From Escherichia phage RB16: a stretch of DNA of 64,000 nt. The notes under the pieces were generated by a model, which searched no databases, was not told the origin of the DNA, and worked only from the letters and a program-made list of their open reading frames with translations. The position numbers and the translations under genes are program-made. Positions 3,266 to 44,996 of this stretch are shown here, one piece after another. The DNA lies in the sequence record NC_014467.1; one strand, given 5' to 3'. The first letter of the stretch is position 1. Each line of letters opens with the position of its first letter.

Positions 3266-3879
3266 TTTGTGAGGGTGTCCATTTGTTTTGATTTTTCCAA
3301 CAGGGTTTTGATTACCGTATCCATCGCCTGTTCTGTATCACCATCATGATAGATGATCGCGGTTTGATGCAAACCTTTCACCAGACGATTGATAATGTAC
3401 GCCATTTCGGTCGGTAACAGTTTACCCGTTTTGTTGAATTTTTCAAACAGATTGAACAGTTCTTCGTTATTCCCTTTCTTACGGAAATTGAAGTTGTGCA
3501 TCCCAGACAGAAGACTATCCAGATACAGAACTGTTTTGTTATCAGAGCGGAGGTGTCCACCGATTTTGTAGTAGTTGCTGAAAACGTATGGTGCTTCACG
3601 AACATCATCGATGTCGAAACCAGCATCATCGATATTGCCTACGTGGGAGAAGAAATCCGCATCGTTATCGAACAGATTGATCGCGCCTTTCTTGTATGGG
3701 AATCCAGCCAGGTTAATGACTCCCTTTTCATACGCATCATCGTTATCAACGACAACGTATTCAGGAAGCATAGGGGCATATGGTTTGTTTTTGTCGTGGT
3801 TTTCGCGATACGCTAAAGGTTCAGCCAGATAGAGGATATCGCCTTGTTTGACTTCATCCCAAAAGATATTACGTGACAT
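3262..3879 (-). CDS. hypothetical protein (205 aa; start trimmed to MSRNIFWD to avoid overlap with upstream gene)
   Basis: ORF track 3262-4047 trimmed to the Met at 3879. Confidence 0.45.
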   Translation of the reverse strand: MSRNIFWDEVKQGDILYLAEPLAYRENHDKNKPYAPMLPEYVVVDNDDAYEKGVINLAGFPYKKGAINLFDNDADFFSHVGNIDDAGFDIDDVREAPYVFSNYYKIGGHLRSDNKTVLYLDSLLSGMHNFNFRKKGNNEELFNLFEKFNKTGKLLPTEMAYIINRLVKGLHQTAIIYHDGDTEQAMDTVIKTLLEKSKQMDTLTK

Positions 3880-3919
3880 ATTAAATTCCTCAACATGCCC
3901 CCTTTCGGGGGCTATATCA

Positions 3920-6139
3920 TTACAGTTTAACTTCTTTTTCTTCCAGGACGATTTCGCAATCGAATGTTGCACCTTCCCAGAACTTATGCGGGATAATGTC
4001 AGTCGCTTTAACCGATACTTTGGTTTCTTCAAAATCCATATCCGCAAACCAGGCGTGGCCTACAACGATACCGTACATTACACGGCTCAGGCGCTTGTTC
4101 AGTGCGCGTACTTCGTTGATGGTTGCCTTTGTTTCTTTATCAAGGTACTCGATTACCTTATCCTTGTCAAGCGCTGCGAGTTCAGCTTTAACAGCATCGT
4201 AAGCCCACAGGATGATCAGGTCGCCGTTGTTCAGTTTCTTCTTACCTTCGGCACGTTTCGCAACGGTTGCCGCTACAGCAGGAAGGGAGGAAACACCCTT
4301 GATTTTCAGATTCAGTTCTTTCGACATATAAACATCAGTCGAATCGGTACGGGTTACTTTCGGGGAGAATCCATAATCACGAATACCCTGTTCAGATAAC
4401 CATTCACCAGCGGCTTCACCGTATTTCTGTTTCAGACCTTCGGCATTACGTAAACCGATCGCGTCGTCACGGAAGAACTTCATCACCTTCTGGCGACCTT
4501 TCAGGATTTCCAGACGGATAGAGTCGTTTACATACTCTTTACCGGAGATCCCGCGAGTCATCGCACGGTTAACCAGAGGCAGACTTGTAAAGTCAACCAG
4601 AACCGACATACGGTCTTCACCGATTTTTGCCAGCGGCTTGATGGTCAAACCAGAAGCGCGGAGGTTTTTCAGTGTCGGAATATCAGTTTCCAGAGGCAGA
4701 ACTTTAACGTTTACGATACCGTCTTTAACGATGGTAAAGTTACGCACCTGCTTAGTTTCGATCTGTTCAGGCAGTCCCAGTTCTTTCTGTTTGCTTTCTG
4801 GGATAGTTACGTAACCTTGCAGATCCGTGTTAATGGAAATGTTAGGACGTGAACTGTTGCCGACCAGATGTTTAACCGATACTTTGGTTGTTGTCTGGGT
4901 AAATTTCGGTGTCCAGATTTCGTGCGTTACCATTTGTGCGGCTAATGCTTTGCGTTCTTCCGGTGTTTTCGCATTTGCGATCTGTTCTGACAGTTGATCC
5001 AGAGTATCATCTTCTTTCTGTACTGTCTGACGGCCTGTACGGTTGTACGCCCAGTGTTCAGAAGACAGGTCGATCACTGTGTCAGTTTCTGCCAGCAGTT
5101 CTAGAGCATCAACCAGAGTGAATGCGTTTTCGTCTGGAACCATGTTGTAATCAACACCTTCAATCAGACGTTTACCCGCATCAACTACCGCTTCCGCGAT
5201 CAGGTCTTTGGCGTTGGAATAATCCTGCTTAGTAAAGCAGTTATCGTAAGCCTTAATCAGACGAACGTCACCGACTTTTTTCAGCACTTTCCATGCCAGA
5301 TCAGGGTTCATGGTATGAAGTGCATGATACAGAACCACGTACAGAACCTGTTCACCTTCCATCGTAGCTGGATCAAATCCGTCGATATCGTTGATTGCGT
5401 TATCACCCAGCGCCCAGATGTTTTTGATATGCTCAGGAACCAGCACAACACCGTTTGCAGCGTTCAGGACATACACGCGCCCTTCGTCAATGTAGATCGC
5501 ATGGGTAGCATCACCTACTTTAACTTCAATACGCGCTGATGTTTGAGCGGTAATGATTTCAGCAAATGCTGGCTCGTATGCGTCGAAACCTTCAACGAAT
5601 TTATGCAATGCGTTGGTTGCTTCTGCCATTTTTTCCAGCAGAGGACGGTTAACATAGTAACCATATTCCAGGAACGCAATGCTGTTAAACGTCAGAGGGA
5701 GAACCGCACACGCTTTCAGGATGTCATCGGTACGCCAGCAGTTATCATAACCATCCGTCAGGAAGATCAGGCTGTTCAGGTTGCCGTTTTCGGATTGCAG
5801 GTCAGTTGCAATCTCAGCAGCCAGATTCAGAGGTTCGACGAAACCAGTACAACCAGTAGGTTTCAGATAACGGTCGATCGCGGTGCAGATATTGGTCAGA
5901 TCCGATACGTTGCTAACCTTCTCACCACGGAACACAGTACCGTAATCGCCTTTGCTGGAGAAGTACAGGATCGAAACAGTATCATCCTGTTTAACCAGGC
6001 TTGCCAGATTCGCTTTCAGGTGCTTACGAATTTTCGGCAATTCGCTGTACATTGAACCGGAAACGTCGCAAACGAAAACGTGGTTGGTCGGAGTCGGTTT
6101 AGATACTGCATTTTTGAATTCGATATTTGTAATTGACAT
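3920..6139 (-). CDS. von Willebrand factor A (vWA) domain protein, 739 aa
   Basis: N-terminal MIDAS motif VCDVSGSM (DxSxS) and downstream IFLTDGYDN; long C-terminal region of unknown fold. Confidence 0.7.
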   Translation of the reverse strand: MSITNIEFKNAVSKPTPTNHVFVCDVSGSMYSELPKIRKHLKANLASLVKQDDTVSILYFSSKGDYGTVFRGEKVSNVSDLTNICTAIDRYLKPTGCTGFVEPLNLAAEIATDLQSENGNLNSLIFLTDGYDNCWRTDDILKACAVLPLTFNSIAFLEYGYYVNRPLLEKMAEATNALHKFVEGFDAYEPAFAEIITAQTSARIEVKVGDATHAIYIDEGRVYVLNAANGVVLVPEHIKNIWALGDNAINDIDGFDPATMEGEQVLYVVLYHALHTMNPDLAWKVLKKVGDVRLIKAYDNCFTKQDYSNAKDLIAEAVVDAGKRLIEGVDYNMVPDENAFTLVDALELLAETDTVIDLSSEHWAYNRTGRQTVQKEDDTLDQLSEQIANAKTPEERKALAAQMVTHEIWTPKFTQTTTKVSVKHLVGNSSRPNISINTDLQGYVTIPESKQKELGLPEQIETKQVRNFTIVKDGIVNVKVLPLETDIPTLKNLRASGLTIKPLAKIGEDRMSVLVDFTSLPLVNRAMTRGISGKEYVNDSIRLEILKGRQKVMKFFRDDAIGLRNAEGLKQKYGEAAGEWLSEQGIRDYGFSPKVTRTDSTDVYMSKELNLKIKGVSSLPAVAATVAKRAEGKKKLNNGDLIILWAYDAVKAELAALDKDKVIEYLDKETKATINEVRALNKRLSRVMYGIVVGHAWFADMDFEETKVSVKATDIIPHKFWEGATFDCEIVLEEKEVKL

Positions 6140-6149
6140 TTAAATTTTC

Positions 6150-6488
6150 TCAGTATTTGGTTGTTTTATGTGCGTTTAAAATGCTTTGGATTTTTTCGGA
6201 AATCGTTTGCTGGTCTGGTTCACATCCCAACTTACCGCCAATCGCCTTATAAAAATCTTCAACAGAGTTTACGTTAAAATCCTGCATATTGAAACCTAAA
6301 GAGTACATGTGTGGATTTTTGAATTCGTAAACATCTACATCATACTCGTTAAGGTCGAAACGTTCAATATATTTCTTCAAAGAAAATAAATCGAACGGTA
6401 GCGGGAGGTGCTGTTCAATCGTTACAGGTTCCCCCAGCTTATGCGCTTTTAGCGTTGCCGCTTTCGTGTACATCATTTCTTCTTTCAT
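6150..6488 (-). CDS. hypothetical protein (112 aa)
   Basis: ORF track. Confidence 0.45.
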   Translation of the reverse strand: MKEEMMYTKAATLKAHKLGEPVTIEQHLPLPFDLFSLKKYIERFDLNEYDVDVYEFKNPHMYSLGFNMQDFNVNSVEDFYKAIGGKLGCEPDQQTISEKIQSILNAHKTTKY

Positions 6489-7000
6489 CAGTGGTGACTC
6501 TTTGATGTATGTTCAAGGTTGCGGAAAATGTTACCATGTTCCAGTTGGGTTCCAATCGGGCCGCACTCGTCAGAGTACGTAAACTCGTAGATAAACACGC
6601 CGTTTTGATTCCCGTACTTCGTGTTGTATTCTTCATACAGCCACATCTTGATCAGAGCGTCTTTCTCTTCGGTTTCTAAATCGTACCAATCCCGACCATC
6701 ATATGCAAGTGCAATTTGCGGATTTGAACGATAACGGGTTTCCGCGCTGTCTTCGGTTTCCCAATCATAGCGCTTATCATCGTAATACGATTCAAAACTA
6801 TTACCCATATGACCGCCTAAGTCACGGTGAACGTGTTGAACAACTTCTTCGGATGTCAGCGGGGGATTGTAGTAACCGCAATTAGGGGAACATTCACCCA
6901 TCATTTCACGAAGGTTGTTGATATCAGTCGGATCTTTCGGGAACCGGACGATGAAACTACTTGATGAACTATTGCTTACAAAACCAGAACGAATTTTCAT
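6488..7000 (-). CDS. hypothetical protein, paralog family A (shared N-terminus MKIRSGFVSNSSSSSFI)
   Basis: first 17 aa identical to ORF 2610-3077; Cys motif ECSPNCGYYN. Confidence 0.55.
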   Translation of the reverse strand: MKIRSGFVSNSSSSSFIVRFPKDPTDINNLREMMGECSPNCGYYNPPLTSEEVVQHVHRDLGGHMGNSFESYYDDKRYDWETEDSAETRYRSNPQIALAYDGRDWYDLETEEKDALIKMWLYEEYNTKYGNQNGVFIYEFTYSDECGPIGTQLEHGNIFRNLEHTSKSHH

Positions 7001-7242
7001 TTCAACGCCTCGAATTTGATTTCTTTCAGTGATTGTGTGTGATTATAACAAACCACTCCGCGATGTGTTTTCTTTCCGGTAAATCCGTCGAATATGGTGA
7101 CATAATAATGATAGCAACAATCATCAAGAGGATTGTTTCTGATATAGTCTAACACAACGTCTAACGATACGGTAGAGCATACACAGTCAGATTCATTGTC
7201 ACGACCATCATAGAAATCTTTTTCAATACTATAAATTTTCAC
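6997..7242 (-). CDS. hypothetical protein (81 aa)
   Basis: ORF track; ATGA-type overlap with neighbour. Confidence 0.4.
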   Translation of the reverse strand: MKIYSIEKDFYDGRDNESDCVCSTVSLDVVLDYIRNNPLDDCCYHYYVTIFDGFTGKKTHRGVVCYNHTQSLKEIKFEALK

Positions 7243-7481
7243 GATATTTTGCCTTTTCTTTCAGATTTGAGAACGATGTTACTGTAAGGATCCTTTGCTA
7301 CCAGTTCCCACAGGTCGCCAGGATGTTCCCCGCTACGGTAAACAGATGAACGAATGATTTCGTTAAACTTGATCAATGCTTCGTCGATGTCATCATAGCC
7401 ACGTTTCAGAGGCTTACGGTTGCGACGGATGAAGAACATTTCTTTGGTCTTCTCCCAGCGTTCAGAGTTTTTAACCTTCAT
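7239..7481 (-). CDS. hypothetical protein (80 aa)
   Basis: ORF track. Confidence 0.4.
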   Translation of the reverse strand: MKVKNSERWEKTKEMFFIRRNRKPLKRGYDDIDEALIKFNEIIRSSVYRSGEHPGDLWELVAKDPYSNIVLKSERKGKIS

Positions 7482-7770
7482 TGACCTGCCTCATGTTAGC
7501 CATGATTTCTTCAAAAGTCACGGGAATTTCTTTATACTGTTGTGATTCTTCATCCCATACATCGCGATACCCGTATGTTGAACTTTTTGCAATACGTTTT
7601 TCATTTTCCCAAACATCAATAGTAATGTTGTCACCAAGATAAGGAAAATTGTCAACTTTGTTTAAAGCGTCAATACAATTTTGTAACGATTCAGAAACAT
7701 GAACAATTTCAGTGAATTCATAATCGGCACTATAAGAAGAAACGTAAATCATAAAACCCGCACCCACCAA
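7471..7770 (-). CDS. hypothetical protein (99 aa)
   Basis: ORF track. Confidence 0.4.
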   Translation of the reverse strand: MVGAGFMIYVSSYSADYEFTEIVHVSESLQNCIDALNKVDNFPYLGDNITIDVWENEKRIAKSSTYGYRDVWDEESQQYKEIPVTFEEIMANMRQVNEG

Positions 7771-7940
7771 ATAAGGTCAGTAATTACGTCATAGATCATG
7801 AGTGGGAACACTGTAAGAATAATACCCATAACGAACACGGTTCCCCACAACCCCAAACTTTTACGAATAGATAACGCGTATCCAAAAACAACAATCATTC
7901 CTACTACTGCAATGATCAACATAATGATAGATGCAACCAT
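7749..7940 (-). CDS. small membrane protein (63 aa)
   Basis: two hydrophobic helices MVASIIMLIIAVVGMIVVFGYAL / LWGTVFVMGIILTVFPLMI. Confidence 0.4.
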   Translation of the reverse strand: MVASIIMLIIAVVGMIVVFGYALSIRKSLGLWGTVFVMGIILTVFPLMIYDVITDLIWWVRVL

Positions 7941-7955
7941 AATATAACCCTCACG

Positions 7956-7975
7956 AAAAGCCCCTTTCGGGGCTT
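7956..7975 (-). terminator. intrinsic terminator-like hairpin
   Basis: AGCCCC-GAAA-GGGGCT followed by TTTTCG on minus strand. Confidence 0.5.
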
Positions 7976-7981
7976 GATTAA

Positions 7982-8269
7982 TCAGTGTCCGAAGATGTGT
8001 TTAACAGACTCAGCGAAAGCGTAGAACACTGGATTGTTTTCTTTCAACATCGCTTCCGATTTCAGAAGGTAATCGCTTTTGAACTTAGTACCGAACAGGC
8101 AGTAAGAAAACGATTTGTCCCAGTAAAAGCAGTTATAACCACCATCAACAAATCTCACTTCAACCAACAAATAACCCACATCTTCCGGTTTGGTATTTGA
8201 ATAATCTTTCAGAAGGTTAGCACTTGCTACTTTGTATGCGTTACCAGCAACCAAATCGTTATAAGTCAT
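7982..8269 (-). CDS. hypothetical protein (95 aa)
   Basis: ORF track. Confidence 0.4.
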   Translation of the reverse strand: MTYNDLVAGNAYKVASANLLKDYSNTKPEDVGYLLVEVRFVDGGYNCFYWDKSFSYCLFGTKFKSDYLLKSEAMLKENNPVFYAFAESVKHIFGH

Positions 8270-8319
8270 GATGTGTTCCTTTTCAGTTTCGTTTCGATAA
8301 AGCTAAGGTATCACTGTTC

Positions 8320-8751
8320 TTACGAAGATGCAAACACTTTTTTGAAGAATTTTGTTTCCGGTCTTTCTTTGTATGGACGCATGGTCAATTCTTTACCATC
8401 CAACACAATTGGTTCTCCGTTCAGTTCGATCAGGATAAAGTTGCCTTTGCGATACTTCAACACACCCTGGCTTGCCGACCATTCATCATTATCCCAGTGG
8501 TTATAATGCCACTCAACAACGGTATCGATTGGTATTTCTGGTTGATTTCTCATAGCTTTCCTTCGTTCTGATGCTTCTTTCAATTGTCGTATTTGTGGGA
8601 TCAACTGTTGTGGTGGAACAGTATCTGCTTGTTTCAGTGCCTTTCGAGCTTGTTCAACAAACCATTCATATTTCGGACGGTGTTTAAGTTGTTCACGCAG
8701 TCGGGCATTCTCTTGTTCGGCAATACTTGCACGTTTTCTATAATCAGTCAT
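8320..8751 (-). CDS. hypothetical protein (about 144 aa; start trimmed to MTDYRKRAS)
   Basis: ORF track 8320-8814 trimmed to avoid overlap with 8759-9013. Confidence 0.4.
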   Translation of the reverse strand: MTDYRKRASIAEQENARLREQLKHRPKYEWFVEQARKALKQADTVPPQQLIPQIRQLKEASERRKAMRNQPEIPIDTVVEWHYNHWDNDEWSASQGVLKYRKGNFILIELNGEPIVLDGKELTMRPYKERPETKFFKKVFASS

Positions 8752-8758
8752 ATAAACC

Positions 8759-9013
8759 TCAAAAAATATGCGTAAGGTTTCCGGCGTTGTTCGGGTATTC
8801 CACGTAATCGCCACGGAATATGTTTAGATCGGAATCGAACTTAAATCCTTGACCCCTGACATCCTCATGACGGGAAATATAAGAACATCCGTACTTTTGT
8901 AGATCTTCCATGTACATTTCAGTGATGCGTTTTGCTTTGTCCATTCCCCGACCTTCAAATCGGGAACGGCGATAATGTTCCAGCAAAAACGCATATAACT
9001 TTTCGTATGTCAC
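8759..9013 (-). CDS. hypothetical protein (84 aa)
   Basis: ORF track. Confidence 0.4.
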   Translation of the reverse strand: MTYEKLYAFLLEHYRRSRFEGRGMDKAKRITEMYMEDLQKYGCSYISRHEDVRGQGFKFDSDLNIFRGDYVEYPNNAGNLTHIF

Positions 9014-9918
9014 AGAACTTTCCTTATCTGTTTGGCTATTGCCTCGATAACTGGCACGGAAACGGAGTTACCCGCTTGCTTGTATGCTTGTTTTTTACTC
9101 GATGGAATAATAAACGAATCTGGGAAGCCTTGCAAGCGAAAACATTCACGCGGGGTTAATCGTCGTGGGTTCTTCCCGTCCTGCAACACCAGACATTGAA
9201 CGCCGTCCTTGTAATATTGCGCGGTGATGGTTCCTGTGTGCGTAGAATCGGCTGTGACGGCCTGATAACCAAAGCCCTTACCGTTTGCCTTATTTCGTTC
9301 CTTACGCTCTCTAAAGCCTTTCCACGCGTTATCTGATAGAGTGTACGAATCATCAGCATCTTCGAGGATATCACCTACGCGCGTAGGGGTACGCGGGGGA
9401 ACCGGAAACGAAAAGAATACATCATCCAGGAAGCAGACAATGAACACGCGTTCACGTCGCTGGGGTAGTCCGAAATCTTTTGTATTCAGTCGCTGATAGA
9501 ATACGTTGTATCCTTCGGCCTCAAGAAGCCCGTAAATCGTTTTAAACGTCTTTCCCTTGTCATGGGTTAGCAATTCAGGCACGTTCTCAAAGAACAGCAC
9601 ACGGGGCTTTTTAGCGCGTATGATGCGGAGGATTTCAAAGAACACCGTACCGCGAGCATCATCAAATCCCAGTTTCAATCCGGCTTTACTGAATGCCTGA
9701 CACGGGAACCCAGCCAACAGGATATCGTGATCGGGTACTTTGTTTTCATCAATGGCAAACAGATCACCCTGTAGGTTATCGTCGCCCCAGTTTTCAATAT
9801 AGGTTTGCTGTGCGTGTTTGTCGATCTCAGACGTTAAAAGGCATTCGACCCCGCCGAATGCATTATCAAATCCAAATCGAACTCCACCAACGCCAGCGCA
9901 GAGGTCAATTATTTTCAT
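9010..9918 (-). CDS. DNA (cytosine-5)-methyltransferase, Dcm-like
   Basis: C5-MTase motifs in order: LCAGVGG (I), FPCQAFS (IV, catalytic Cys), ENV (VI), QRRERVF (VIII), GNSV (X). Confidence 0.85.
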   Translation of the reverse strand: MKIIDLCAGVGGVRFGFDNAFGGVECLLTSEIDKHAQQTYIENWGDDNLQGDLFAIDENKVPDHDILLAGFPCQAFSKAGLKLGFDDARGTVFFEILRIIRAKKPRVLFFENVPELLTHDKGKTFKTIYGLLEAEGYNVFYQRLNTKDFGLPQRRERVFIVCFLDDVFFSFPVPPRTPTRVGDILEDADDSYTLSDNAWKGFRERKERNKANGKGFGYQAVTADSTHTGTITAQYYKDGVQCLVLQDGKNPRRLTPRECFRLQGFPDSFIIPSSKKQAYKQAGNSVSVPVIEAIAKQIRKVL

Positions 9919-10178: not shown

Positions 10179-10447
10179 CAGTTGCTACCCCACGTATAAA
10201 AATCAAATTTTTCGGTTTGCGCTTCTTCAACACGGATCACGTAATCACTGGTATCGTATTTGTCAGCGGTACGGAATTCAACCGAATACACACGAGCAAA
10301 CACAGCATAAAGCGCTTCGCGGATTTTCTCTGCGATCTCTTCATCGGTCTTATCGATATGCAACGTAAGCATATCGGAAACCACATCTTCAACGCGACGA
10401 ACATCACGCTTATCAATGTAACCAGTGTATAAATTTACTTCTTTCAT
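10178..10447 (-). CDS. hypothetical protein (89 aa)
   Basis: ORF track. Confidence 0.4.
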   Translation of the reverse strand: MKEVNLYTGYIDKRDVRRVEDVVSDMLTLHIDKTDEEIAEKIREALYAVFARVYSVEFRTADKYDTSDYVIRVEEAQTEKFDFYTWGSN

Positions 10448-11430
10448 TTGTAATACCTCATAACATGATCTTTGTACACGAGTTCAATGAAGTTATCCCA
10501 GAACTCGCGATCGACTTCTTTCGGATAGGTAGAGATTGCAGCCAGGCGTTCAACTTCACCCATCACTTCCTCCAGTTTTTCCTGTACTTCGGCAAACGGG
10601 ACATTACCAGCTTTAACCGATTTCAACAGGTCACTCTCAGGAAGAGGATAAACGATATCACCGTGCTTGTAAATCTGTACCAACTGCATACCGCCGCGCA
10701 ATGCGTGACTTAATGCTTTCCAATCGATCCCATTGTTGGCTTCTGCTTGTCGTGCGCGTTCGCCATATTCATCCCAGAGCTTATACACGGATTTCTTCAT
10801 TTCCGCTACGGTGATTGTGAACTGGAATTTACGACCCAGAACTTCGTAGAAATTCTGCATACCACCTTTTTCGCTATAATGCAAAATAGAACGACAGAAT
10901 TCATTGGTCGGTAGTTGGTCTTTGATGTCGCCAACTTTGGTATTAACCAACGATGAAGCGTTTTCATCGTAATGTGCATTATCGGTGTCTTGCAACACGT
11001 CATACACTTCACGCAATGCAGCCAGGCGTGAACCCTTAACGCCATATTTCGCGGCTTGCTTACGAACATAACCGAACAGACCAGTTAACTCCGTGGTGTA
11101 GAAACGCCAGCGGTTAGCGCGGATATACTGCCAGATTTCAGAGTTAGCGATCAGCTTGCTATCATCAGCATGAAGCATATCGAGCGCTACGGTATCACCA
11201 TCACACGCAAGGCTGATGAACTTAGGCAGACTATACAACTGACGGTCTACGTCATCAACGGTGTTTTTAGAGTTCTTATCGCCCGTGCTCGTGTCGATGG
11301 TCTTTGGGGCTTTACCCAGTAAGATATCGCGTGGATGCGGGAGAAAGATCCCTTTATAATCTTTGTCGCTTGTCGGGGTGTTCAGTCCGTACAAAAAACT
11401 TCCAAACACCATTTCAACTACGGTTTTCAT
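10444..11430 (-). CDS. nucleotidyltransferase-fold (Pol-beta superfamily) protein, about 328 aa
   Basis: N-terminal VEMVFGSFLYGLNTPTSDKDYKGIF fits hG[GS]x9-13DhD NTase signature; start placed at MKTVVEMVFGSF. Confidence 0.5.
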   Translation of the reverse strand: MKTVVEMVFGSFLYGLNTPTSDKDYKGIFLPHPRDILLGKAPKTIDTSTGDKNSKNTVDDVDRQLYSLPKFISLACDGDTVALDMLHADDSKLIANSEIWQYIRANRWRFYTTELTGLFGYVRKQAAKYGVKGSRLAALREVYDVLQDTDNAHYDENASSLVNTKVGDIKDQLPTNEFCRSILHYSEKGGMQNFYEVLGRKFQFTITVAEMKKSVYKLWDEYGERARQAEANNGIDWKALSHALRGGMQLVQIYKHGDIVYPLPESDLLKSVKAGNVPFAEVQEKLEEVMGEVERLAAISTYPKEVDREFWDNFIELVYKDHVMRYYK

Positions 11431-11947
11431 AAAATTCTCCAAATAATTCTTTCGCTTTCGCTTCGTATACTACACTAGCTTCTTCTGGCGTGGCAAACCT
11501 ACCCAAAAACATATCTTTGCGGTTATGTTTGATTTTAGCTATCCATTTATCACGAGCATTGTCGAAATAGACCCCCTTATAGCCAGATTTATTGGTTTTC
11601 GGAGTTTTTGCTTTCATCGTGTTCTGCTGTTGCGTTACTTCCTGTAGGTTATCTTTGCCATTACCGTTCCCGACCCCGCGTTTATGGTCAACGATAGCGG
11701 GAAGATACCCGTTAGCAACATAGAAAACAATTCGATGAACATAGTACGACTTGCCGTTATATCCTATTGCAGTGTATCCAAATGAATTCGTACTACCCGC
11801 AATACTTCCTACTGTAGCCCTACTACCCCTGTGAACTTTCCAATAACACAACCCTGTGTCAACATCAACCCGAAGAATTTCTAACAATGAATCTATTTCG
11901 CTGCGTTCATCTTCTAGCGTTCTTTTCCACCGTCCGTGGCATTTCAT
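11414..11947 (-). CDS. HNH homing endonuclease with AP2-type DNA-binding domain
   Basis: YVHRIVFYVANGYLP...VDHKRG...DNLQ (HNH_3-like) followed by SGYKGVYF...KWIAKI...LGRF...EEA (AP2-like). Confidence 0.7.
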   Translation of the reverse strand: MKCHGRWKRTLEDERSEIDSLLEILRVDVDTGLCYWKVHRGSRATVGSIAGSTNSFGYTAIGYNGKSYYVHRIVFYVANGYLPAIVDHKRGVGNGNGKDNLQEVTQQQNTMKAKTPKTNKSGYKGVYFDNARDKWIAKIKHNRKDMFLGRFATPEEASVVYEAKAKELFGEFYENRS

Positions 11948-12336
11948 TCTTCAATTCCCAAGATAGCAGCAATTGCTTTCAGGTTTTCGGTAGTGATTTC
12001 GGGAACATTCACAGTGTATGAATTACCGAACATAGGCTGAATTTTAGCACACAATTCTTTACGATACATCATTTCTTTATAATGTTCTTCACTGCGATAG
12101 ACAGTGTACCCCATCCATCCATCGGTTCGTCCAAATGTGCGGTCAATCTTTTCATTGGTGTACGATTTCGGATCGAAGGTTTCAGAAGTTGACGCATAGA
12201 TGTATTTTCTTGCTACTTTATGCACATACAGTGTGCGCGGTTTTCTGTTCTGTCTTGTATCAGAACGAATACCGCAATCATAAAGGGTATCGCCCACTTT
12301 CACATCAGATAAATTTCTCATTTCATTTTCCAACAC
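11944..12336 (-). CDS. hypothetical protein (130 aa)
   Basis: ORF track. Confidence 0.45.
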   Translation of the reverse strand: MLENEMRNLSDVKVGDTLYDCGIRSDTRQNRKPRTLYVHKVARKYIYASTSETFDPKSYTNEKIDRTFGRTDGWMGYTVYRSEEHYKEMMYRKELCAKIQPMFGNSYTVNVPEITTENLKAIAAILGIEE

Positions 12337-12569
12337 TTTTTCTTTTCACAATAAAACACAGGGAGTTTAGACAATACCGGAGTAATGACATTCTCACCAG
12401 TTTTCGTATTATGCACCAGTTCGATAGTAAGTGATTTACCCATCGCAGATTTGACAATATCCAGTTTCAGGATCTCACGATTACCCTTTGTATTGATTTC
12501 CGCAACATAATAATCATTACCGTTGATGTTAATAACATCACCCATCAAAACGCTTCTGGCATGTTTCAT
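12318..12569 (-). CDS. hypothetical protein (83 aa)
   Basis: ORF track. Confidence 0.4.
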   Translation of the reverse strand: MKHARSVLMGDVININGNDYYVAEINTKGNREILKLDIVKSAMGKSLTIELVHNTKTGENVITPVLSKLPVFYCEKKKCWKMK

Positions 12570-13141
12570 TTAAACGTCACCTTCGTATACAGCGAGGACA
12601 TCAAAGAACGGTCAACACCGTCAATAACAATCATACCCTGGTACGCGTCTTTGTCTTTGCGGGAGTACATACGACACAGCAGCGAACCATCTTTTGCGAT
12701 GTATTCAACCTGGTATGTGCGACGTTCTGTTTTCAGAATATCACCAATAGCAACCGGACGTTCTACCTTTTCCCGTTTGTTCAGTGAAAATGACAACACA
12801 TTATTTCCATCTACATCAACCGTTTTATCTTTTGCCGCACAATCACGGCTATCAATGCTATGGATGTTAACTGAATACACGCTATCAGAAAGCAGCCTAT
12901 GATCATCACCTGAACCAATTGTCGCGATGATGGTCGATCCAGTCGTGCTGCGATTGTCAGACACAAACACATACACAGTGAACGGTACACCGAGTTTAAT
13001 ATCTTTCGCAACAGATTGAACAGTGAACGGTTCTTTGAACCCGCGAGATAGTGAGTGATTAATAAAAACGCCATCACCAGGGATCAGAGCGCGACGAACA
13101 ATTTTGGTTTCTTCGGTTTTGATAAATGCAGTTTTGTTCAT
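12566..13141 (-). CDS. hypothetical protein (191 aa)
   Basis: ORF track. Confidence 0.45.
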   Translation of the reverse strand: MNKTAFIKTEETKIVRRALIPGDGVFINHSLSRGFKEPFTVQSVAKDIKLGVPFTVYVFVSDNRSTTGSTIIATIGSGDDHRLLSDSVYSVNIHSIDSRDCAAKDKTVDVDGNNVLSFSLNKREKVERPVAIGDILKTERRTYQVEYIAKDGSLLCRMYSRKDKDAYQGMIVIDGVDRSLMSSLYTKVTFK

Positions 13142-13410
13142 AATGATTTCCTCTCAAATTCTTCATCAGATTTCCAGTACACGTTAAAGTTACGGCAATC
13201 ATGATCAGAAGTCAATGTATATTTTTCACTTGTTTTTTCATCGGTGATAACCATCGTTTCATTTTCGATAGAGTCAACACCATACACAAACACTTTATCA
13301 CCGCGCGTATTCAGGAACGCGTCACCTTCTTCAATCAACTGCCAACAGTTCACTGGTAAACCGCCCGTGCTTATCGGACGGCTAACAAGACAGTAAGGGT
13401 GTTTAATCAT
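13138..13410 (-). CDS. hypothetical protein (90 aa)
   Basis: ORF track. Confidence 0.4.
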   Translation of the reverse strand: MIKHPYCLVSRPISTGGLPVNCWQLIEEGDAFLNTRGDKVFVYGVDSIENETMVITDEKTSEKYTLTSDHDCRNFNVYWKSDEEFERKSL

Positions 13411-13774: not shown

Positions 13775-14836
13775 TCAAGCAACCCCCGTAAAGGCGTTTA
13801 CTATCTGGAAATGATCATCGAAGAATTCCCCTTGTCGTTGTACGACCTCATGTAAGGGCATCCAGAACGCCTCTGCTGCATCGTCAGCGCCTCCCATAAT
13901 GCGGGGCAGACTTCCATCATTGTTAGGTTCTAACTTGATGTATTGCGCTACAGTCGGTTTTGAGAAGTGTACGGAACGCTTCGGATGATCAAACAACATC
14001 GAATTGCGAATTGAACCACGGATAACCTTTTCAGGAACCTTGATCCGAACCTCTTCGAGCAATTCACGGATCGCACAATCCAGGAATGTTTCGTTTGCGT
14101 TTTTGTGTCCACCTGGCAGGGCCAACGCGCCTTTACCCGGTGCAAACTTACGACGAATTACCAGAAGGTGATTGTTACACACAACCACGCTATCACCCGT
14201 ACAACAGTTTAACGCGTCGGGGTATGGGTACGCTTTGAACTTCTCCAGTTCATCTTCCCATTTCTCGAACTCGTAGTACAAGCGCCAGAACGTATCGGTC
14301 ATCATCCATCCGTTAAGAGAACCCACGACAGCAGCAGGAACATAACGGGCGATCTTCTCGTCCCATCCATTTTTATGTAAAAATATGGTTGGACGCAGGT
14401 CGGTAGCAGATAAATCTTTGCCGTCAACCTTAACCGGATCAACCGGAACATGAGTCCATCCGAACGCTTTAAGCCAGTACGAATCAGCATCTTTTTCGTA
14501 ACCGTAGATCGCGATGTTATCGCCTTTAGTTTCGTCGATTGCTGTACGAACAGAGGTTTTCCATTTTTCTTCATTGTAAAGGTAATCTGGAATCGGTTTG
14601 AATTGCACACGGGACACATCTTCATATTTGAACTCAGACAGTAACCAGCTTGTAATCATACGTTCCCGTTCGGTTGCTGTTAGCGGGTTTAAAACGTTAG
14701 GGTAAGCATAAGCGGAACCCAGGAGGATATAAACGGCCTTCGACTCTTCAAGTGCTTTACGCACCATTGCCGCATGACCATTATGGAAGGGTTGGAATCT
14801 GCCAATTACGACAGCTTTATCAAATTTGTATTTCAT
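13775..14836 (-). CDS. natV: bifunctional NMN adenylyltransferase / Nudix hydrolase (NatV-like)
   Basis: N-terminal GRFQPFHNGH (HxGH nucleotidyltransferase motif) and C-terminal Nudix box GGHKNANETFLDCAIRELLEEVRIKV; start set at MKYKFDKAVVIGRF. Confidence 0.8.
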   Translation of the reverse strand: MKYKFDKAVVIGRFQPFHNGHAAMVRKALEESKAVYILLGSAYAYPNVLNPLTATERERMITSWLLSEFKYEDVSRVQFKPIPDYLYNEEKWKTSVRTAIDETKGDNIAIYGYEKDADSYWLKAFGWTHVPVDPVKVDGKDLSATDLRPTIFLHKNGWDEKIARYVPAAVVGSLNGWMMTDTFWRLYYEFEKWEDELEKFKAYPYPDALNCCTGDSVVVCNNHLLVIRRKFAPGKGALALPGGHKNANETFLDCAIRELLEEVRIKVPEKVIRGSIRNSMLFDHPKRSVHFSKPTVAQYIKLEPNNDGSLPRIMGGADDAAEAFWMPLHEVVQRQGEFFDDHFQIVNAFTGVA

Positions 14837-14861
14837 AACGTGCTCCACGTTTAAAGGGTAA

Positions 14862-14960
14862 TCATAAAACAGACGCAATAATCAATACACCAAGCAAACC
14901 GCCAATAAAGCCGAAGAATAGCGAAATGAAGATAGATAAGATGATCTGTTTTATGTTCAT
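14862..14960 (-). CDS. possible single-pass membrane micropeptide (32 aa)
   Basis: hand translation MNIKQIILSIFISLFFGFIGGLLGVLIIASVL; lies between SPFH gene and natV. Confidence 0.25.
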   Translation of the reverse strand: MNIKQIILSIFISLFFGFIGGLLGVLIIASVL

Positions 14961-15014: not shown

Positions 15015-15941
15015 TTATTTACGAGAATCGAAAATCACTTTACCAGCGTAATCTGAACCCATGACAGTCTGAGGCACATCACCTTTATAACGGGTAGAGT
15101 AGTTCATCTGTACATCCAGTTCTTTCCAGCGGATCATTTCTGGTGTGATGGTACGTTGCAACACGGCGTTCGCTTCTGCTTCTTTCTTCGCTGCATACAG
15201 TTTAGCGTCTGCATCACGTTCGTTGGCGATCGCATCGTTTTCACGCGCCTGACGATTTGCTTCCGCTTGTTTTACCTGTTGCTGTGAAGTCTGTTCGACT
15301 TTTGCCAGTTCCGCACGAGCGGCGTTAACCTGTTCTTCACGAATTTTCGTGTTAGTTACCTGTTCCATGATAACATCCGGCAGGGTGATATCCTGCAAGA
15401 ATACCTGTTTCACGGTGTAACCGTAAGGACGCGCATACTCTTCGACTTCCTGTTGAATTGCGGTCTGCAACTGGTTCTGGATCTTAGCATCAAACAGATC
15501 CTGTGCTTTTGGAACCGATTTGCCGAACTCGCGAACGGTTGACAGCAGTTTTTCGGTTACATACTTATCCAGTGCCTGTTCCTGGTCTCCCGCGTTGATG
15601 CGGTTGATAGGCGCTTTGTTACCGTCAAATTGCAGCATAACGGTCATATCAACAGTGGATTTAAACTTATCCTGTGAAGGAACCTGCAATTTATCGAACT
15701 TCTTCGCAATGTCTTTCGTGCTGAAAGTATCGAAATCAGCCAGCGGGTTTACGATATGGAAACCAGGCAGTACAGGTTTCGGAGAAACCTTACCCATGAA
15801 GGTCTGAGTTTTGACCGTGCCGTCCTGTACTACTGTAAAGGAGTTCGGAACCAGCCACAGTGCGGCTACTACGCCCAGAGCGATCAGAGTGGTTTTCTTC
15901 GGGTTGTTCAGGATAGTATTCATATTCATAGTATGTCTCAT
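15015..15941 (-). CDS. SPFH/band-7 (stomatin/prohibitin-like) membrane protein
   Basis: N-terminal TM helix TLIALGVVAALWLV followed by PHB-like region and C-terminal Ala/Gln/Glu-rich coiled coil typical of band-7 proteins. Confidence 0.6.
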   Translation of the reverse strand: MRHTMNMNTILNNPKKTTLIALGVVAALWLVPNSFTVVQDGTVKTQTFMGKVSPKPVLPGFHIVNPLADFDTFSTKDIAKKFDKLQVPSQDKFKSTVDMTVMLQFDGNKAPINRINAGDQEQALDKYVTEKLLSTVREFGKSVPKAQDLFDAKIQNQLQTAIQQEVEEYARPYGYTVKQVFLQDITLPDVIMEQVTNTKIREEQVNAARAELAKVEQTSQQQVKQAEANRQARENDAIANERDADAKLYAAKKEAEANAVLQRTITPEMIRWKELDVQMNYSTRYKGDVPQTVMGSDYAGKVIFDSRK

Positions 15942-19028: not shown

Positions 19029-19677
19029 TTAAATAATTTGCTTTTCTTCTAACAGTTTCGCGGTATGGTTAACCATGCGAGCATAATCACGGGCTTCTTT
19101 CTTCGTATACTTGAAGCCCGCGTTATAGCTTGCCAGCGCCTTTTTCAAGTCGCCTTTGTGGTAATCAAGCCAGTATTCCAGTTCATGAATGGCAAACTTA
19201 GAACCTCCCCGAAGGGATTCGAGCTTATTGATTACTACGCGTTTGGAATATGATTTATCCATCCGTGCGGAAGCACTGTTTACAGTGACTTGCCAACAGC
19301 CATAAGCATGATGACCTTTTTTGCCCTTTCCGGTGTTCTCACATGCGCGAGATTCGATCCAGGCGATAGCCGCTAAATGATATCCCAAACGTTTCGATTT
19401 TTCTTTTTTCAGCAGGTTTTGCAGTCGTTAGATCATAGTCGTTGCCAACTCTGAAAGCATACTCCAAAACCTTTTTCTGCTTTGGTGTAATTTCGTCCAA
19501 TTCCTTGACATATGCAGGGGCATTGGCTGGTGCTTTCTTGATCACTGTTGCCTGTTGAAGCGGAAGTGTTGACTGAACAGCAGGAAGTTTTTCGATGAAT
19601 TCTCCTAGCGGATCTGTCTTTGCGTGACCAGAAAAAGAGCATAAGAAAATGAAAGGTAGTATCCATTTGAATCTCAT
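19029..19677 (-). CDS. soluble lytic transglycosylase (SLT domain) split over two overlapping frames; frameshift or pseudogene
   Basis: ORF 19339-19677 gives signal peptide MRFKWILPFIFLCSFSGHA; ORF 19029-19388 gives catalytic LAAIAWIESR...AYNAG; overlap contains an A6/T6 run at 19404-19409. Confidence 0.5.
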
Positions 19678-20234
19678 GGGCTTTCCTTATTATAAAAAGT
19701 TCCAAAATTTAACAACGCTGATTTTTTATAAGCGTTGCTTGCTTCTTCAGGATCATCAAAAGATCCCAAGTAGGTTGCTTTACCATTAATGGTTATTTGA
19801 GCAATCCACTTTTCATTTATAGTATTCCAAGTAACACCGATAAAACCAGAAGTATTAGTTTTCATCATACTTTTCTTTTGCTGATTTTGAGTATTAGTCA
19901 CTTCTTGCAAGTTGTCAATACCATCACCAAAAGAAACACCTTTCTTATGATCAATCATAACAGGAAGAGTACCTGTAGATACATAATACACGATGCGGTG
20001 TCTTCTAAACTGCTTTCCTTTGAAGTTTATAACGGTATATCCATCTTTCCGCAAGGTTCCTGCAAAAGAACCAACTTTAATTTTTCGGTTAGTTGATTTT
20101 ATCCATACACACGTACCGGAAACAACGTCAACGCTGATATATTCAAGTAATTCATCAATCAGTTGTTTTTCTTCTGATAGTGTACGCTCTCCCCATCCAT
20201 AAGATTTAGTCATGTTTAATACCTTTTGTAACAA
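19674..20234 (-). CDS. HNH homing endonuclease with AP2-type domain (paralog of 11414-11947)
   Basis: FRRHRIVYYVSTGTLP...IDHKKG...DNLQ and SGFIGVTW...KWIAQI...LGSF...EEA. Confidence 0.7.
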   Translation of the reverse strand: MLQKVLNMTKSYGWGERTLSEEKQLIDELLEYISVDVVSGTCVWIKSTNRKIKVGSFAGTLRKDGYTVINFKGKQFRRHRIVYYVSTGTLPVMIDHKKGVSFGDGIDNLQEVTNTQNQQKKSMMKTNTSGFIGVTWNTINEKWIAQITINGKATYLGSFDDPEEASNAYKKSALLNFGTFYNKESP

Positions 20235-21251: not shown

Positions 21252-22601
21252 TTAAAAGTTGTCTTCGACGAATGCTGCCAGGCGTCCACGATACACAGTA
21301 TTCAGGATTATGTGACTAGCATGGTCATATTCTTTAAGTTTTTCAACAGCATAGACAAAACCGTTGTTTACAGCAGTGTTTCGCGGGTTGTCAATCTGCT
21401 TAATATTCCCGCATAGTATCAGAAGTGTGTTCTCTCCGCAACGGGAAATAATGGATTTTATTTCATGGTTGCTCAAGTTTTGACATTCGTCAACAATCAG
21501 CACTGAACCTTTACCAGGATCTGGGTGTCCGATAGAACGCCCACGGAAGTAATACAGGCTGGGGAACTGTACAACACCTTTCTCTAACAGCCCTTCGACG
21601 TACTTATCAACTTCCGGTTGATCCTTAAACAGAATGTTCAGGCTTGTAATACATGGTTCAATAGACGGTCGTAATTTTTCGCCCAGTGTACCAGGTAAGA
21701 ACCCGATTTCTCCCGACAGCGGGCTATCCGATTTTACATACATCACATTGGCAAAATGACCCGCACTTACCAGGTGCATAGCACCAGCAACCGCCAGCAT
21801 TGTTTTACCGGAACCAGCCGCGCCCATAATGGTCACTGCATCAATGTTTTTATCCAGAATGGAATCAACGAAAGACGCTTGCAACGCATCGCGAGGTTGA
21901 ATGGTTTTCATCAGCTTGCGTTTCATCAGGTGTTCGTGTTTCAACGGCAACACTTCAAGCTGAAACTCTCCAGCATCCACCACACGCCCGACAACCTCAC
22001 CACCAGACAGAATGTATTGGTTAGGGTAGAAATCTACCTTATAGTCGGCAAACGACGCATAGCTAATCAATGCAATGTCACCATTGTACCCGACAACATC
22101 AACGATGTTCCAGAAGTCGGTCAGTTCAATATAACCGGAATACAGAACATCACTATCTTTCAGTGTGTCATCGCCCGTGTACTGTTCAACAGGGCAACCC
22201 TTAGACATTGCGATCAGCAGCATATTGATATCGCGGGTTACTAAGGTCGCTTTCTCCTGCAAACAGGTAGCGATAATGCGAGCATCTTGCTTATCAAGCG
22301 GGAACTCTTCACCACCGACATAATCGACGATACGCAGAGTAACGCTATCGGGTAAAGCTGGGTTTGTTTGACCCAACGAAACCCCAGTTTGGGTAATTGC
22401 TTCATACTTCTGTCCCAGGACAATTTTAGACAGAAGTCGGATCACTAAACGTGCTTCGCGGGAAGTGTGTTCCTTTGATTTCAGGTGATCCAGTTCTTCC
22501 ATTGTTGCAGCGGTAATGATGATCTCAGTACCAGGGGCAACATAAGAATAGATTGAATATGGGTTCGAGATTAAAACGTTGGTATCTAGAACATATTTCA
22601 T
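21252..22601 (-). CDS. phoH: PhoH-like ATPase with N-terminal PIN domain
   Basis: N-terminal VLDTNVLIS (PIN-like) and Walker A GAAGSGKT, Walker B LIVDECQN; start set at MKYVLDTNV. Confidence 0.8.
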   Translation of the reverse strand: MKYVLDTNVLISNPYSIYSYVAPGTEIIITAATMEELDHLKSKEHTSREARLVIRLLSKIVLGQKYEAITQTGVSLGQTNPALPDSVTLRIVDYVGGEEFPLDKQDARIIATCLQEKATLVTRDINMLLIAMSKGCPVEQYTGDDTLKDSDVLYSGYIELTDFWNIVDVVGYNGDIALISYASFADYKVDFYPNQYILSGGEVVGRVVDAGEFQLEVLPLKHEHLMKRKLMKTIQPRDALQASFVDSILDKNIDAVTIMGAAGSGKTMLAVAGAMHLVSAGHFANVMYVKSDSPLSGEIGFLPGTLGEKLRPSIEPCITSLNILFKDQPEVDKYVEGLLEKGVVQFPSLYYFRGRSIGHPDPGKGSVLIVDECQNLSNHEIKSIISRCGENTLLILCGNIKQIDNPRNTAVNNGFVYAVEKLKEYDHASHIILNTVYRGRLAAFVEDNF

Positions 22602-22655
22602 AGAAGTTTTCCTGTTAATTGCGAGGTACGCGGATTCGCACCCCGCGTAATGCAA

Positions 22656-26110: not shown

Positions 26111-26406
26111 ATCATCTTACCATATTTGAGAGTATTCATATAACCGATGATGTATTCAACAACAGCATCGCGTTCTTCTTCACATTCATATCCAGCCCAC
26201 GTTATCGACTGATTATGTGCTAAATGAAACTTAATCGCAGGTTTCCATGTTTTGTTAAGACAAGGAATTTTAGCATCAGTCTCAATCCATGAAACGTGCT
26301 CTACGTTAACAGGATAGTTAATACATTCCACCTCTGCATTACTATTGTATACAAAATGGTCTGCATATAAACGTTTATACGATTTAATTTCTGGTACAAT
26401 AATCAT
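26107..26406 (-). CDS. hypothetical protein (99 aa)
   Basis: ORF track. Confidence 0.4.
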   Translation of the reverse strand: MIIVPEIKSYKRLYADHFVYNSNAEVECINYPVNVEHVSWIETDAKIPCLNKTWKPAIKFHLAHNQSITWAGYECEEERDAVVEYIIGYMNTLKYGKMI

Positions 26407-27557
26407 TTTAACTCCACTGCATAAACATCGGTTTCAGTGGCTTTGTGTACGCGCATATCTTTACCGCATACTGCATAAGCCGGACAGTTACGACAACCGT
26501 TATGATCCTTATTACCGATCAGTTCATTACGGAACTGTTTGGTTTTCGGATGTTCCCAGATATCCTTAATGAAATCGTTCGCTTCCAGGACGTTCAAGCC
26601 TTCTTCCCAACCACCTTCAACCCAGCGTTCGGTAAACGAACAAGGGAAGAACTCGCCTTTCTCGTTGATGTACGAGCTAAACATGGTTGCTTCACAATCT
26701 TCGGCATACTGTTTGTACTGTTCGAAGTTTGGGTGTCCTTCCATCGCTTCAACGAAAGCGGGGGCTGAACAGCTATCGAAACCAAATCCTACACCAGAAT
26801 CAAGGCAATATTCAACAAGTTTTTTGTATTGTTCGCGGGTAACAGTATCCCAGTTCTTACCGCGTCCCTTTTGTTTCAGCCCCAGGAACACAATCGCATT
26901 GACTTGTTTCAGTCGCGGATCATTGCGCACAGCATCAACAACGTTAAACGCATCATCATAGGTTTTAGAGCTAACCATGAAGTGAAGGTTAATTTGCTGT
27001 TGTCCTGCTTCTGCCAGGTTCGCTACCGAGTCGAAAGCGACATCGAAGCCAGCATGTTTATAAACCGATACCGCAACAGCCCCAGCAACAGCCGCTAAAC
27101 GCGCTGCAACGTCTTTTGATACATCGGCAATGGTAAGGTTCGGCACAATGCCTTTAGAACGCGCATAGGCCATCATATCGAACATATCAGGGTTTGTTTG
27201 TCCCTGTGCATCAGCACCGAGGGCGCATTGAGTCAACCAGGGCATTTTATCAATGATAGATTTGAATGATTCCAGATCCATATTGTAGCCGTTAGGGTTG
27301 TTGGACTTGTAACAGAAACCGCACAGCTTACCAGCGGGGCCATTACATTTCGTGGTGATCTCGATATCGAGAATTTCAGGGAAAGGCGCGTATGTCGGAT
27401 CGCTTGCAAAGGTTGTACCCCAACGAGAGAATTCGCCAGTGTCAACATTGAAATTGTAGTTGTACCACTTAGAGCGAGCAAAGCGCATATTACCCTGCTG
27501 GTAAATCATCAGCGAAGGGGCTTTCATTACAGTTTGTGCGCGGTCAATAATATCCAT
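26403..27557 (-). CDS. putative Fe-S / radical-SAM-like enzyme with atypical Cys cluster (about 384 aa)
   Basis: LDIEITTKCNGPAGKLCGFCY (Cx7Cx2C preceded by TxxCN as in radical SAM cores) plus C-terminal CRNCPAYAVCG cluster; start set at MDIIDRAQ. Confidence 0.4.
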   Translation of the reverse strand: MDIIDRAQTVMKAPSLMIYQQGNMRFARSKWYNYNFNVDTGEFSRWGTTFASDPTYAPFPEILDIEITTKCNGPAGKLCGFCYKSNNPNGYNMDLESFKSIIDKMPWLTQCALGADAQGQTNPDMFDMMAYARSKGIVPNLTIADVSKDVAARLAAVAGAVAVSVYKHAGFDVAFDSVANLAEAGQQQINLHFMVSSKTYDDAFNVVDAVRNDPRLKQVNAIVFLGLKQKGRGKNWDTVTREQYKKLVEYCLDSGVGFGFDSCSAPAFVEAMEGHPNFEQYKQYAEDCEATMFSSYINEKGEFFPCSFTERWVEGGWEEGLNVLEANDFIKDIWEHPKTKQFRNELIGNKDHNGCRNCPAYAVCGKDMRVHKATETDVYAVELK

Positions 27558-27567
27558 GATATAGTTC

Positions 27568-27774
27568 TCAAAATTTAACGTGGGATTGGAAAACAGCACG
27601 AGCAAGGTTTTCGCTATCGAACGGGATTGATGTTCCCTGGTCTTTGCTGTCAATGTTAACGCGCCAGAACTCACTAGACCCGTTTTTGGTGGAGTAATGC
27701 ATCAGCGTTACCGTCTTATTCTTTTCCAGGAAGATGCGTTTATCAATCTCTGTTTTTATTTCGTGCTGCATCAT
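27568..27774 (-). CDS. hypothetical protein (68 aa)
   Basis: ORF track. Confidence 0.4.
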   Translation of the reverse strand: MMQHEIKTEIDKRIFLEKNKTVTLMHYSTKNGSSEFWRVNIDSKDQGTSIPFDSENLARAVFQSHVKF

Positions 27775-44318: not shown

Positions 44319-44996
44319 ATGAATTACGATAGGATATATAAAGCTCTTATAGATAAGCGGAGGAAAACTCCGCTTAAAGACGGATATAAGGAACATCATC
44401 ACATCATTCCTAAATCTATGGGCGGTAGTGATGATTTTGATAATATGGTGTATTTGACAGCGAGAGAACATTTCGTTGCGCATCTTTTACTCGCTCGTAT
44501 ACATGGTGGTAAGATGTGGTTTGCTGTTGCTATGATGTGTGGGCGTGGATCAAGTAGCGCGAAAGGCGTTGTCCCTACTTCTCGAATATATGAGTTAGCC
44601 AAAAAACGGGTAGCCAATGAAAGAAGTATATTGTTTTCTGGGAAATTACATCCATTATACGGAAAGCCTTGTACAGAACAACGAAGAAAACGCATAGCTG
44701 AAGGACGTAAAGGGAAAACGCATACTCAGGAAACGAAACAGAAAATGTCTGAATCGAAGAAAGGATATAAACATACTCAGGAGACGAAACAGAAAATGTC
44801 TGAGTCACGGAAGAGACAAACACCTCCTACTCTGGGTAAAAAGTTACCTTCTCCATCAATCGAAAAAAGAAAGAAACTTAGTGAGGCTATTAAAAATCAG
44901 CCAATCATCAAATGTCCATATTGCGGGTTAGAAAGTAACAGCAAAGGAAATATGGTGAGGTTTCATTTCGACAACTGCAAATATAGGAAACCATGA
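44319..44996 (+). CDS. HNH homing endonuclease (Mob-like)
   Basis: HNH core EHHHIIPKSMGGSDDFDNMVYLTAREHFVAH; internal duplicated HTQETKQKMSES motif. Confidence 0.8.
   Translation: MNYDRIYKALIDKRRKTPLKDGYKEHHHIIPKSMGGSDDFDNMVYLTAREHFVAHLLLARIHGGKMWFAVAMMCGRGSSSAKGVVPTSRIYELAKKRVANERSILFSGKLHPLYGKPCTEQRRKRIAEGRKGKTHTQETKQKMSESKKGYKHTQETKQKMSESRKRQTPPTLGKKLPSPSIEKRKKLSEAIKNQPIIKCPYCGLESNSKGNMVRFHFDNCKYRKP
44721..44807 (+). repeat. 35-nt near-perfect tandem duplication inside HNH gene
   Basis: CATACTCAGGA(A/G)ACGAAACAGAAAATGTCTGA(A/G)TC at 44721-44755 and 44773-44807. Confidence 0.8.

Follow-up and report, generated by a model that had tools for sequence, protein, structure and literature searches.

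Judged from its sequence, the gene nrdC.11 of Escherichia phage RB16 encodes the member by which the RlaP family (PF10127) of Pol-beta nucleotidyltransferases (NTases) is represented in T4-type phages, and by analogy with the bacterial members we consider it rather probable that the protein acts in RNA repair, re-adding nucleotides to nuclease-trimmed tRNA before sealing by Pnk and RNA ligase. The gene lies in the 64,000-nucleotide stretch of record NC_014467.1 that was analysed here, hereafter the window, where the features that bear on this assignment are:

10444..11430 (including the TGA), minus strand: nrdC.11 ortholog encoding an RlaP-family (PF10127) Pol-beta nucleotidyltransferase of 328 aa, assigned from the ORF, identity, Pfam and PHROG
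11035..11430, minus strand: predicted NTase catalytic domain, residues 1–132, with G10-S11, D22-x-D24 and D60/D62
10738..11022, minus strand: insertion of the NrdC.11 clade, residues ~137–231, absent from canonical ~250-aa RlaPs
10447..10737, minus strand: C-terminal helical domain, residues ~232–328, colinear with the RlaP C-terminal domain
11414..11947, minus strand: free-standing HNH-AP2 homing endonuclease gene, directly upstream of nrdC.11 (Pfam HNH_3, AP2)

The reading frame runs from an ATG at 11430 to a TGA stop at 10444–10446 and specifies 328 aa (N-terminus MKTVVEMVFGSFLYGLNTPTSDKDYKGIF), in agreement with an earlier note, made from the letters of the sequence, that had placed a gene for ~330 aa at 10444–11430. 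A Shine–Dalgarno GGAG stands 6 nt 5′ of this ATG, and the TTG at 11442 listed by the ORF program is the less likely start. The stop codon and the start of the small ORF that follows share an ATGA, an overlap that points to translational coupling of the two within a run of minus-strand genes; a promoter and terminator scan around nrdC.11 gave counts equal to the shuffled-sequence level. The predicted protein is 100% identical to Escherichia phage RB16 NrdC.11, 52% identical over its full length to T4 NrdC.11 (NP_049709; E 3e-117), and matches PHROG 388 ‘nucleotidyltransferase’ (E 1e-117). At the level of DNA, Buttiauxella phage GuL6 (94.6%) and RB43 (93%) come closest in the phage collection, the RB43 counterpart, ORF131c, being annotated as nrdC.11, nucleotidyltransferase. 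Homologs occur in 1,675 phage records of that collection, and among the 1.84 billion representatives of a library clustered at 50% identity they match 3,673 clusters at E ≤1e-3 and 872 at E ≤1e-30. Many GenBank and UniRef orthologs are labelled ‘thioredoxin’. We reject that identity: the label seems to have been carried over from the name nrdC, and Pfam finds no thioredoxin domain.

Membership of the RlaP family (‘RNA repair pathway DNA polymerase beta family’) is indicated by a PF10127 match of 43.5 bits (E 4e-11) in RB16 NrdC.11 and of 46.6 bits in the T4 ortholog, against a Pfam gathering cut-off of 23 bits, and by a precomputed match to the same model in all 120 of the 120 homologs among the matches listed. 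Because the strong match is confined to residues 6–132 (model positions 23–142 of 249), with model positions 138–221 matched weakly, the rest of the protein was compared with RlaP by profiles. The canonical profile was built from 23 aligned relatives of mycobacteriophage Tourach gp35, a 248-aa protein with a full-length PF10127 match of 84.9 bits, and the NrdC.11 profile from 34 orthologs. Aligned with hhalign, the NrdC.11 profile matches these canonical ~250-aa RlaPs at 99.7% (E 1.1e-25, 235 columns), and the alignment is colinear from residues 1–323 of NrdC.11 to residues 4–239 of Tourach gp35, broken by a single insertion. An NCBIfam search with NrdC.11 gave no meaningful match.

The bacterial members have a homologous NTase domain, in which the G-S, DxD and third-Asp motifs recur, as well as a homologous C-terminal helical domain and a colinear two-domain layout. 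They differ in length, NrdC.11 being ~80 residues longer than RlaPs such as those of Pseudomonas fluorescens, P. aeruginosa or Deinococcus ficus because of the ~95-residue insertion between its domains. They differ also in gene context: bacterial rlaP stands beside ligase genes (rtcB-rlaP-rtcA, or Hen1-RlaP-RlaP-Pnkp in D. ficus), whereas nrdC.11 has no ligase neighbour. On the D. ficus plasmid pDFI2 the operon reads Hen1, RlaP, RlaP, hypothetical, Pnkp (3328..9683 of the segment examined), and its tandem RlaPs score 134 and 173 bits against PF10127 and match the NrdC.11 profile over the NTase domain at 93% and 88% probability. The first of the pair carries ~95 extra N-terminal residues. In a sequence similarity network that counts T4 NrdC.11, described as ‘of unknown function’, among the members of the family, this protein falls in cluster 5 and bacterial RlaP in cluster 1a (PMC12776372). 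Other genomic settings of RlaP genes were less helpful: the Bacillus and Curtobacterium plasmid contexts were uninformative, the Erwinia jumbo-phage context consists of hypothetical proteins throughout, and a mycobacterial chromosomal neighbourhood was set aside as a prophage without RNA-repair genes.

The catalytic centre of a Pol-beta NTase appears to be intact. Across 44 homologs, ranging down to 22–29% identity, no substitution is seen at G10, D22, D24, H242 or R245, and conservation reaches at least 90% at S11, D60 and D62. The profile alignment equates G10-S11 with G13-S14 of the canonical RlaPs, D22/D24 with D25/D27 and D60/D62 with D64/E66. D84 is also conserved in NrdC.11, but canonical RlaPs have a hydrophobic residue at the aligned position, so that D84 is probably not the third carboxylate. 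In an AlphaFold2 model (mean pLDDT 88.1, pTM 0.71), G10-S11 follows strand 2–9, D22/D24 open strand 23–30 and D60/D62 open strand 61–67, and the top fold matches are Pol-beta NTases. The earlier note had read an hG[GS]...DxD Pol-beta signature at the N-terminus, a reading now borne out by PF10127, by the conservation among the 44 homologs and by these fold matches; it had also asked whether the GS...DxD region falls in an NTase beta-sheet, and the model predicts beta-sheet there. Its superfamily call thus stands, while the ‘unknown specificity’ that it attached to the enzyme can be narrowed, the protein being NrdC.11 of the RlaP family PF10127.

The modelled protein consists of the NTase domain, a helical domain and a long terminal helix (308–327), and may be compared with the crystal structure of PfRlaP, where a cleft lies between the domains and the C-terminal helix packs back onto the NTase domain. 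Searches of the PDB by sequence, with the single protein, the NrdC.11 profile or the canonical RlaP profile, gave no match, and no RlaP-family chain was found there by sequence or fold. The C-terminal motif IDWKALSHALRGGxQ of NrdC.11, which holds the invariant H242 and R245, matches YDTKxAxHALRLGxQG of canonical RlaPs. Between the two shared domains the ~95-residue insertion, conserved within the NrdC.11 clade, is laid out as a helix, a variable loop with a beta-hairpin, a short helix, a three-stranded sheet and a long helix. We found no structural match to it and no earlier description of it in the literature cited here; it could have changed the substrate of NrdC.11.

RlaP owes its name to a linkage with genes for RNA ligases, and the prediction made in 2016 was that it replaces nucleotides missing from damaged RNA ahead of ligation (Burroughs and Aravind, 2016, as related in PMC12776372 and PMC7824862); a survey of jumbo phages likewise predicts a role in RNA repair (PMC7824862). 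Biochemical data come from a December 2025 preprint on the RlaPs of P. fluorescens and P. aeruginosa, whose genes lie between rtcB and rtcA (PMC12776372). These enzymes add one to two NMPs to RNA 3′-OH ends, prefer Mn2+ as the metal, show little NTP specificity and accept dATP too, and do not use DNA or proteins as substrates; they also partly rescue the aminoacylation of a tRNA missing one anticodon-loop nucleotide (PMC12776372). As the discussion in that work points out, a 3′-OH product fits 5′-phosphate ligases such as Rnl1 and Rnl2 better than RtcB (PMC12776372).

By homology, NrdC.11 would hold two divalent metal ions with D22, D24 and D60 (or D62) and would transfer one to two NMPs from NTP to an RNA 3′-OH without a template. 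In the sequence of events that we propose, a host anticodon nuclease or other ribotoxin would cut a tRNA and remove a nucleotide, as RloC-type nucleases do; NrdC.11 would put nucleotides back on the 5′ fragment of the cut tRNA; the break would then be healed and sealed by PseT (kinase–phosphatase) and the 5′-phosphate RNA ligase RnlA or RnlB; and some functional tRNA would be regained, so that late translation could go on. The activity of NrdC.11, tRNA as its substrate and its cooperation with PseT and Rnl are here inferred from the analogy with bacterial RlaPs. The low NTP specificity of RlaP in vitro does not account for faithful restoration of a given nucleotide.

As likely partners in such repair, the sister phage RB43 encodes rnlA, pseT and rnlB, with rnlA and pseT ~30 kb and rnlB ~70 kb from nrdC.11; in T4 the ligase and kinase genes lie ~80 kb from it, and the 64-kb window holds no homolog of Pnk or RnlA. 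As nrdC.11 adjoins neither ligase nor kinase in the window, RB43 or T4, the gene linkage that gave RlaP its name is missing here; that linkage applies to part of the RlaP family and is not a sequence criterion. RnlA and NrdC.11 occur in similar numbers of records in the phage collection (635 versus 643 for Escherichia, 83 versus 83 for Shigella and 69 versus 69 for Acinetobacter phages), a co-occurrence that holds at the level of the genome only and is confounded by shared Straboviridae ancestry. Distant homologs in two unrelated phages have CCA-adding enzymes as neighbours: in KLEP7 an RlaP-like gene follows immediately downstream of one, with genes for Pth2 and a metallophosphoesterase in the vicinity, and in KPP-1 ~2 kb separate the RlaP-like gene from that of the CCA-adding enzyme; these neighbours support tRNA as the substrate, whether at the anticodon loop or at the acceptor end.

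The same neighbours are what first recommends an alternative in which NrdC.11 mends or tails acceptor (3′ CCA) ends or other RNA 3′ ends, working beside a CCA-adding enzyme and not on anticodon-loop breaks in a ligase pathway. The lack of a ligase neighbour of nrdC.11 in T4-type genomes fits it too, as does the finding that bacterial RlaPs, given total E. coli RNA, label tRNAs and rRNAs of full length (PMC12776372). On a nicked tRNA mimic, however, bacterial RlaP extends the 5′ half at its 3′ end in preference to the acceptor end (PMC12776372), bacterial family members sit in ligase/Pnkp/Hen1 operons, and there are no tRNA genes in the 64-kb window, all of which weighs against an acceptor-end function; we regard it as unlikely, if still the most credible of the alternatives. 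Class II CCA-adding enzymes and poly(A) polymerases likewise belong to the Pol-beta superfamily and extend RNA 3′-OH ends without a template, but their accessory domains differ from that of NrdC.11, which has no PolyA_pol Pfam match and which Foldseek relates weakly to eukaryotic PAPs (E 0.05–0.5).

Fold comparison brings two further enzymes into view, HalB of the Hailong defence system (PDB 9DBH), a 217-aa protein that makes oligodeoxyadenylate, and the uncharacterised NTase-like 3C18, to neither of which NrdC.11 has a detectable sequence relation. From the HalB match one might argue that NrdC.11 is a HalB-related oligonucleotide or signal synthase, whose short products would imitate a host immune signal or decoy, or top up its supply, in the service of anti-defence, yet such a role seems to us very improbable: NrdC.11 shows neither sequence homology to HalB nor pairing with a HalA channel gene. 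Just as improbable is the more specific idea that NrdC.11 with its insertion is a HalB-like synthase with which T4-type phages make up for, or imitate, a decoy or signal oligonucleotide of the host and so silence Hailong-type guards; in a milder form, the insertion would make restoration specific for the tRNA or the nucleotide, a property absent from bacterial RlaPs. We would give equally little credence to nucleotidylylation of a small molecule or protein, after the manner of aminoglycoside or lincosamide NTases or of the HEPN-paired MNT-type AMPylating antitoxins. Fold matches of this kind are weaker than those to HalB and 3C18 and reflect a generic NTase plus KNTase-C/HEPN-like architecture, E. 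coli proteins are not substrates of bacterial RlaPs (PMC12776372), and NrdC.11 matches no antibiotic-NTase or MNT Pfam family. The earlier note had offered three roles for the enzyme; repair of RNA or tRNA ends gains from the RlaP assignment and modification of host proteins finds no support, while for interference with nucleotide signalling there is the resemblance to HalB at the level of the fold, set against the want of a meaningful PADLOC match and of any match to CD-NTase or cGAS/DncV-like models or folds. Restoration of trimmed tRNA ahead of ligation accordingly remains the reading that we prefer.

The start of nrdC.11 is abutted by the HNH-AP2 gene, in which HNH_3 passes the Pfam cut-off (6e-8) and AP2 falls below it (8e-5); the adjacency to an HNH-AP2 homing endonuclease described in the earlier note is thereby upheld at 11414..11947 on the minus strand. 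The final 17 nt of this ORF overlap the start of nrdC.11. Positions 11433–11968 of the window have no counterpart in RB43, whose nrdC.11 comes straight after the ortholog of the next gene. From this sequence evidence we take the gene to be a free-standing homing endonuclease that entered as an independent selfish insertion, with no functional partnership with the NTase. A paralog at 19674..20234 (minus strand), matched over 19680–20207, is 47% identical, and RB43 carries paralogs at two sites, where the annotation reads putative HNH-AP2 homing endonuclease.

In T4, as in RB16, the nrdC.11 start codon adjoins a homing endonuclease gene: the T4 HNH endonuclease gene mobD (12430..13209 of the T4 locus compared) occupies the same junction upstream of nrdC.11 (PMC2988022). 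The HNH-AP2 endonuclease is not supported as a MobD homolog (E 0.74). Both endonuclease ORFs end 17 nt inside nrdC.11, each taking its stop, out of frame, from the conserved Val-Val-Glu/Lys codons of that gene. The presence of unrelated endonucleases at one junction, ending at the same point, suggests recurrent independent homing or insertion just upstream of the nrdC.11 start. The gene keeps the same position relative to the rI/tk block in T4 and RB16; in the RB43/RB16 lineage it lies away from nrdC, unlike in T4, and tblastn finds no match in the 64-kb window to nrdC.10, the gene next downstream in T4. A further free-standing homing endonuclease of the window, HNH plus NUMOD3 at 44319..44996 (plus strand), is 33% identical to T4 MobD. 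It lies among plus-strand genes which we provisionally take to be the baseplate cluster.

Several other genes of the window deserve mention. Directly upstream of the HNH-AP2 gene, 11944..12336 (minus strand) encodes a 130-aa protein with a Phage_ProQ_C_like domain (E 6e-17), possibly an RNA-binding or RNA-chaperone-like protein near the NTase gene, and 21252..22655 (minus strand) encodes a 467-aa fusion of a PIN_4 RNase and a PhoH ATPase (PhoH2-like), a candidate for a further RNA-processing enzyme in the same early-gene region. A bifunctional NMN adenylyltransferase and Nudix protein is encoded at 13775..14878 (minus strand) and a nicotinamide phosphoribosyltransferase by RB43 ORF255w, so that the RB16/RB43 lineage probably carries a phage NAD+ salvage pathway. 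The 423-aa product of 26403..27674 (minus strand) has a C-terminal SPASM iron–sulfur domain, which suggests a radical-SAM-type enzyme. Also on the minus strand are a C5 cytosine DNA methylase (9010..9918; E 1e-93), a 739-aa von Willebrand A domain protein (3920..6139) and an SPFH/Band-7 protein (15015..15941) that is annotated as a lipoprotein in RB43. Between the methylase and the small ORFs RB43 has a plus-strand gene, ORF128w (‘tail needle knob’), that is missing in the RB16 window.

The gene nrdC.11 is an already-catalogued T4-type phage gene of a named family, and the idea of repair was proposed earlier (Burroughs and Aravind, 2016, as related in PMC12776372; PMC7824862), so that the RB16 window offers no discovery; what it adds is a confirmed RlaP member and a description of the clade-specific insertion. 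T4 is viable on a laboratory host after losing nrdC.11–mobD.3 (PMC9825161), and any role of NrdC.11 is therefore conditional on the host. Conservation of the protein extends over more than 1,600 sequenced phages and thousands of metagenomic clusters. If NrdC.11 does restore the wobble nucleotides excised by RloC-type nucleases, it would be a third step in the classic T4 Pnk/Rnl1 tRNA-repair counter-defence, and would account for the ability of T4-like phages to withstand nucleases against which simple religation is considered to fail.
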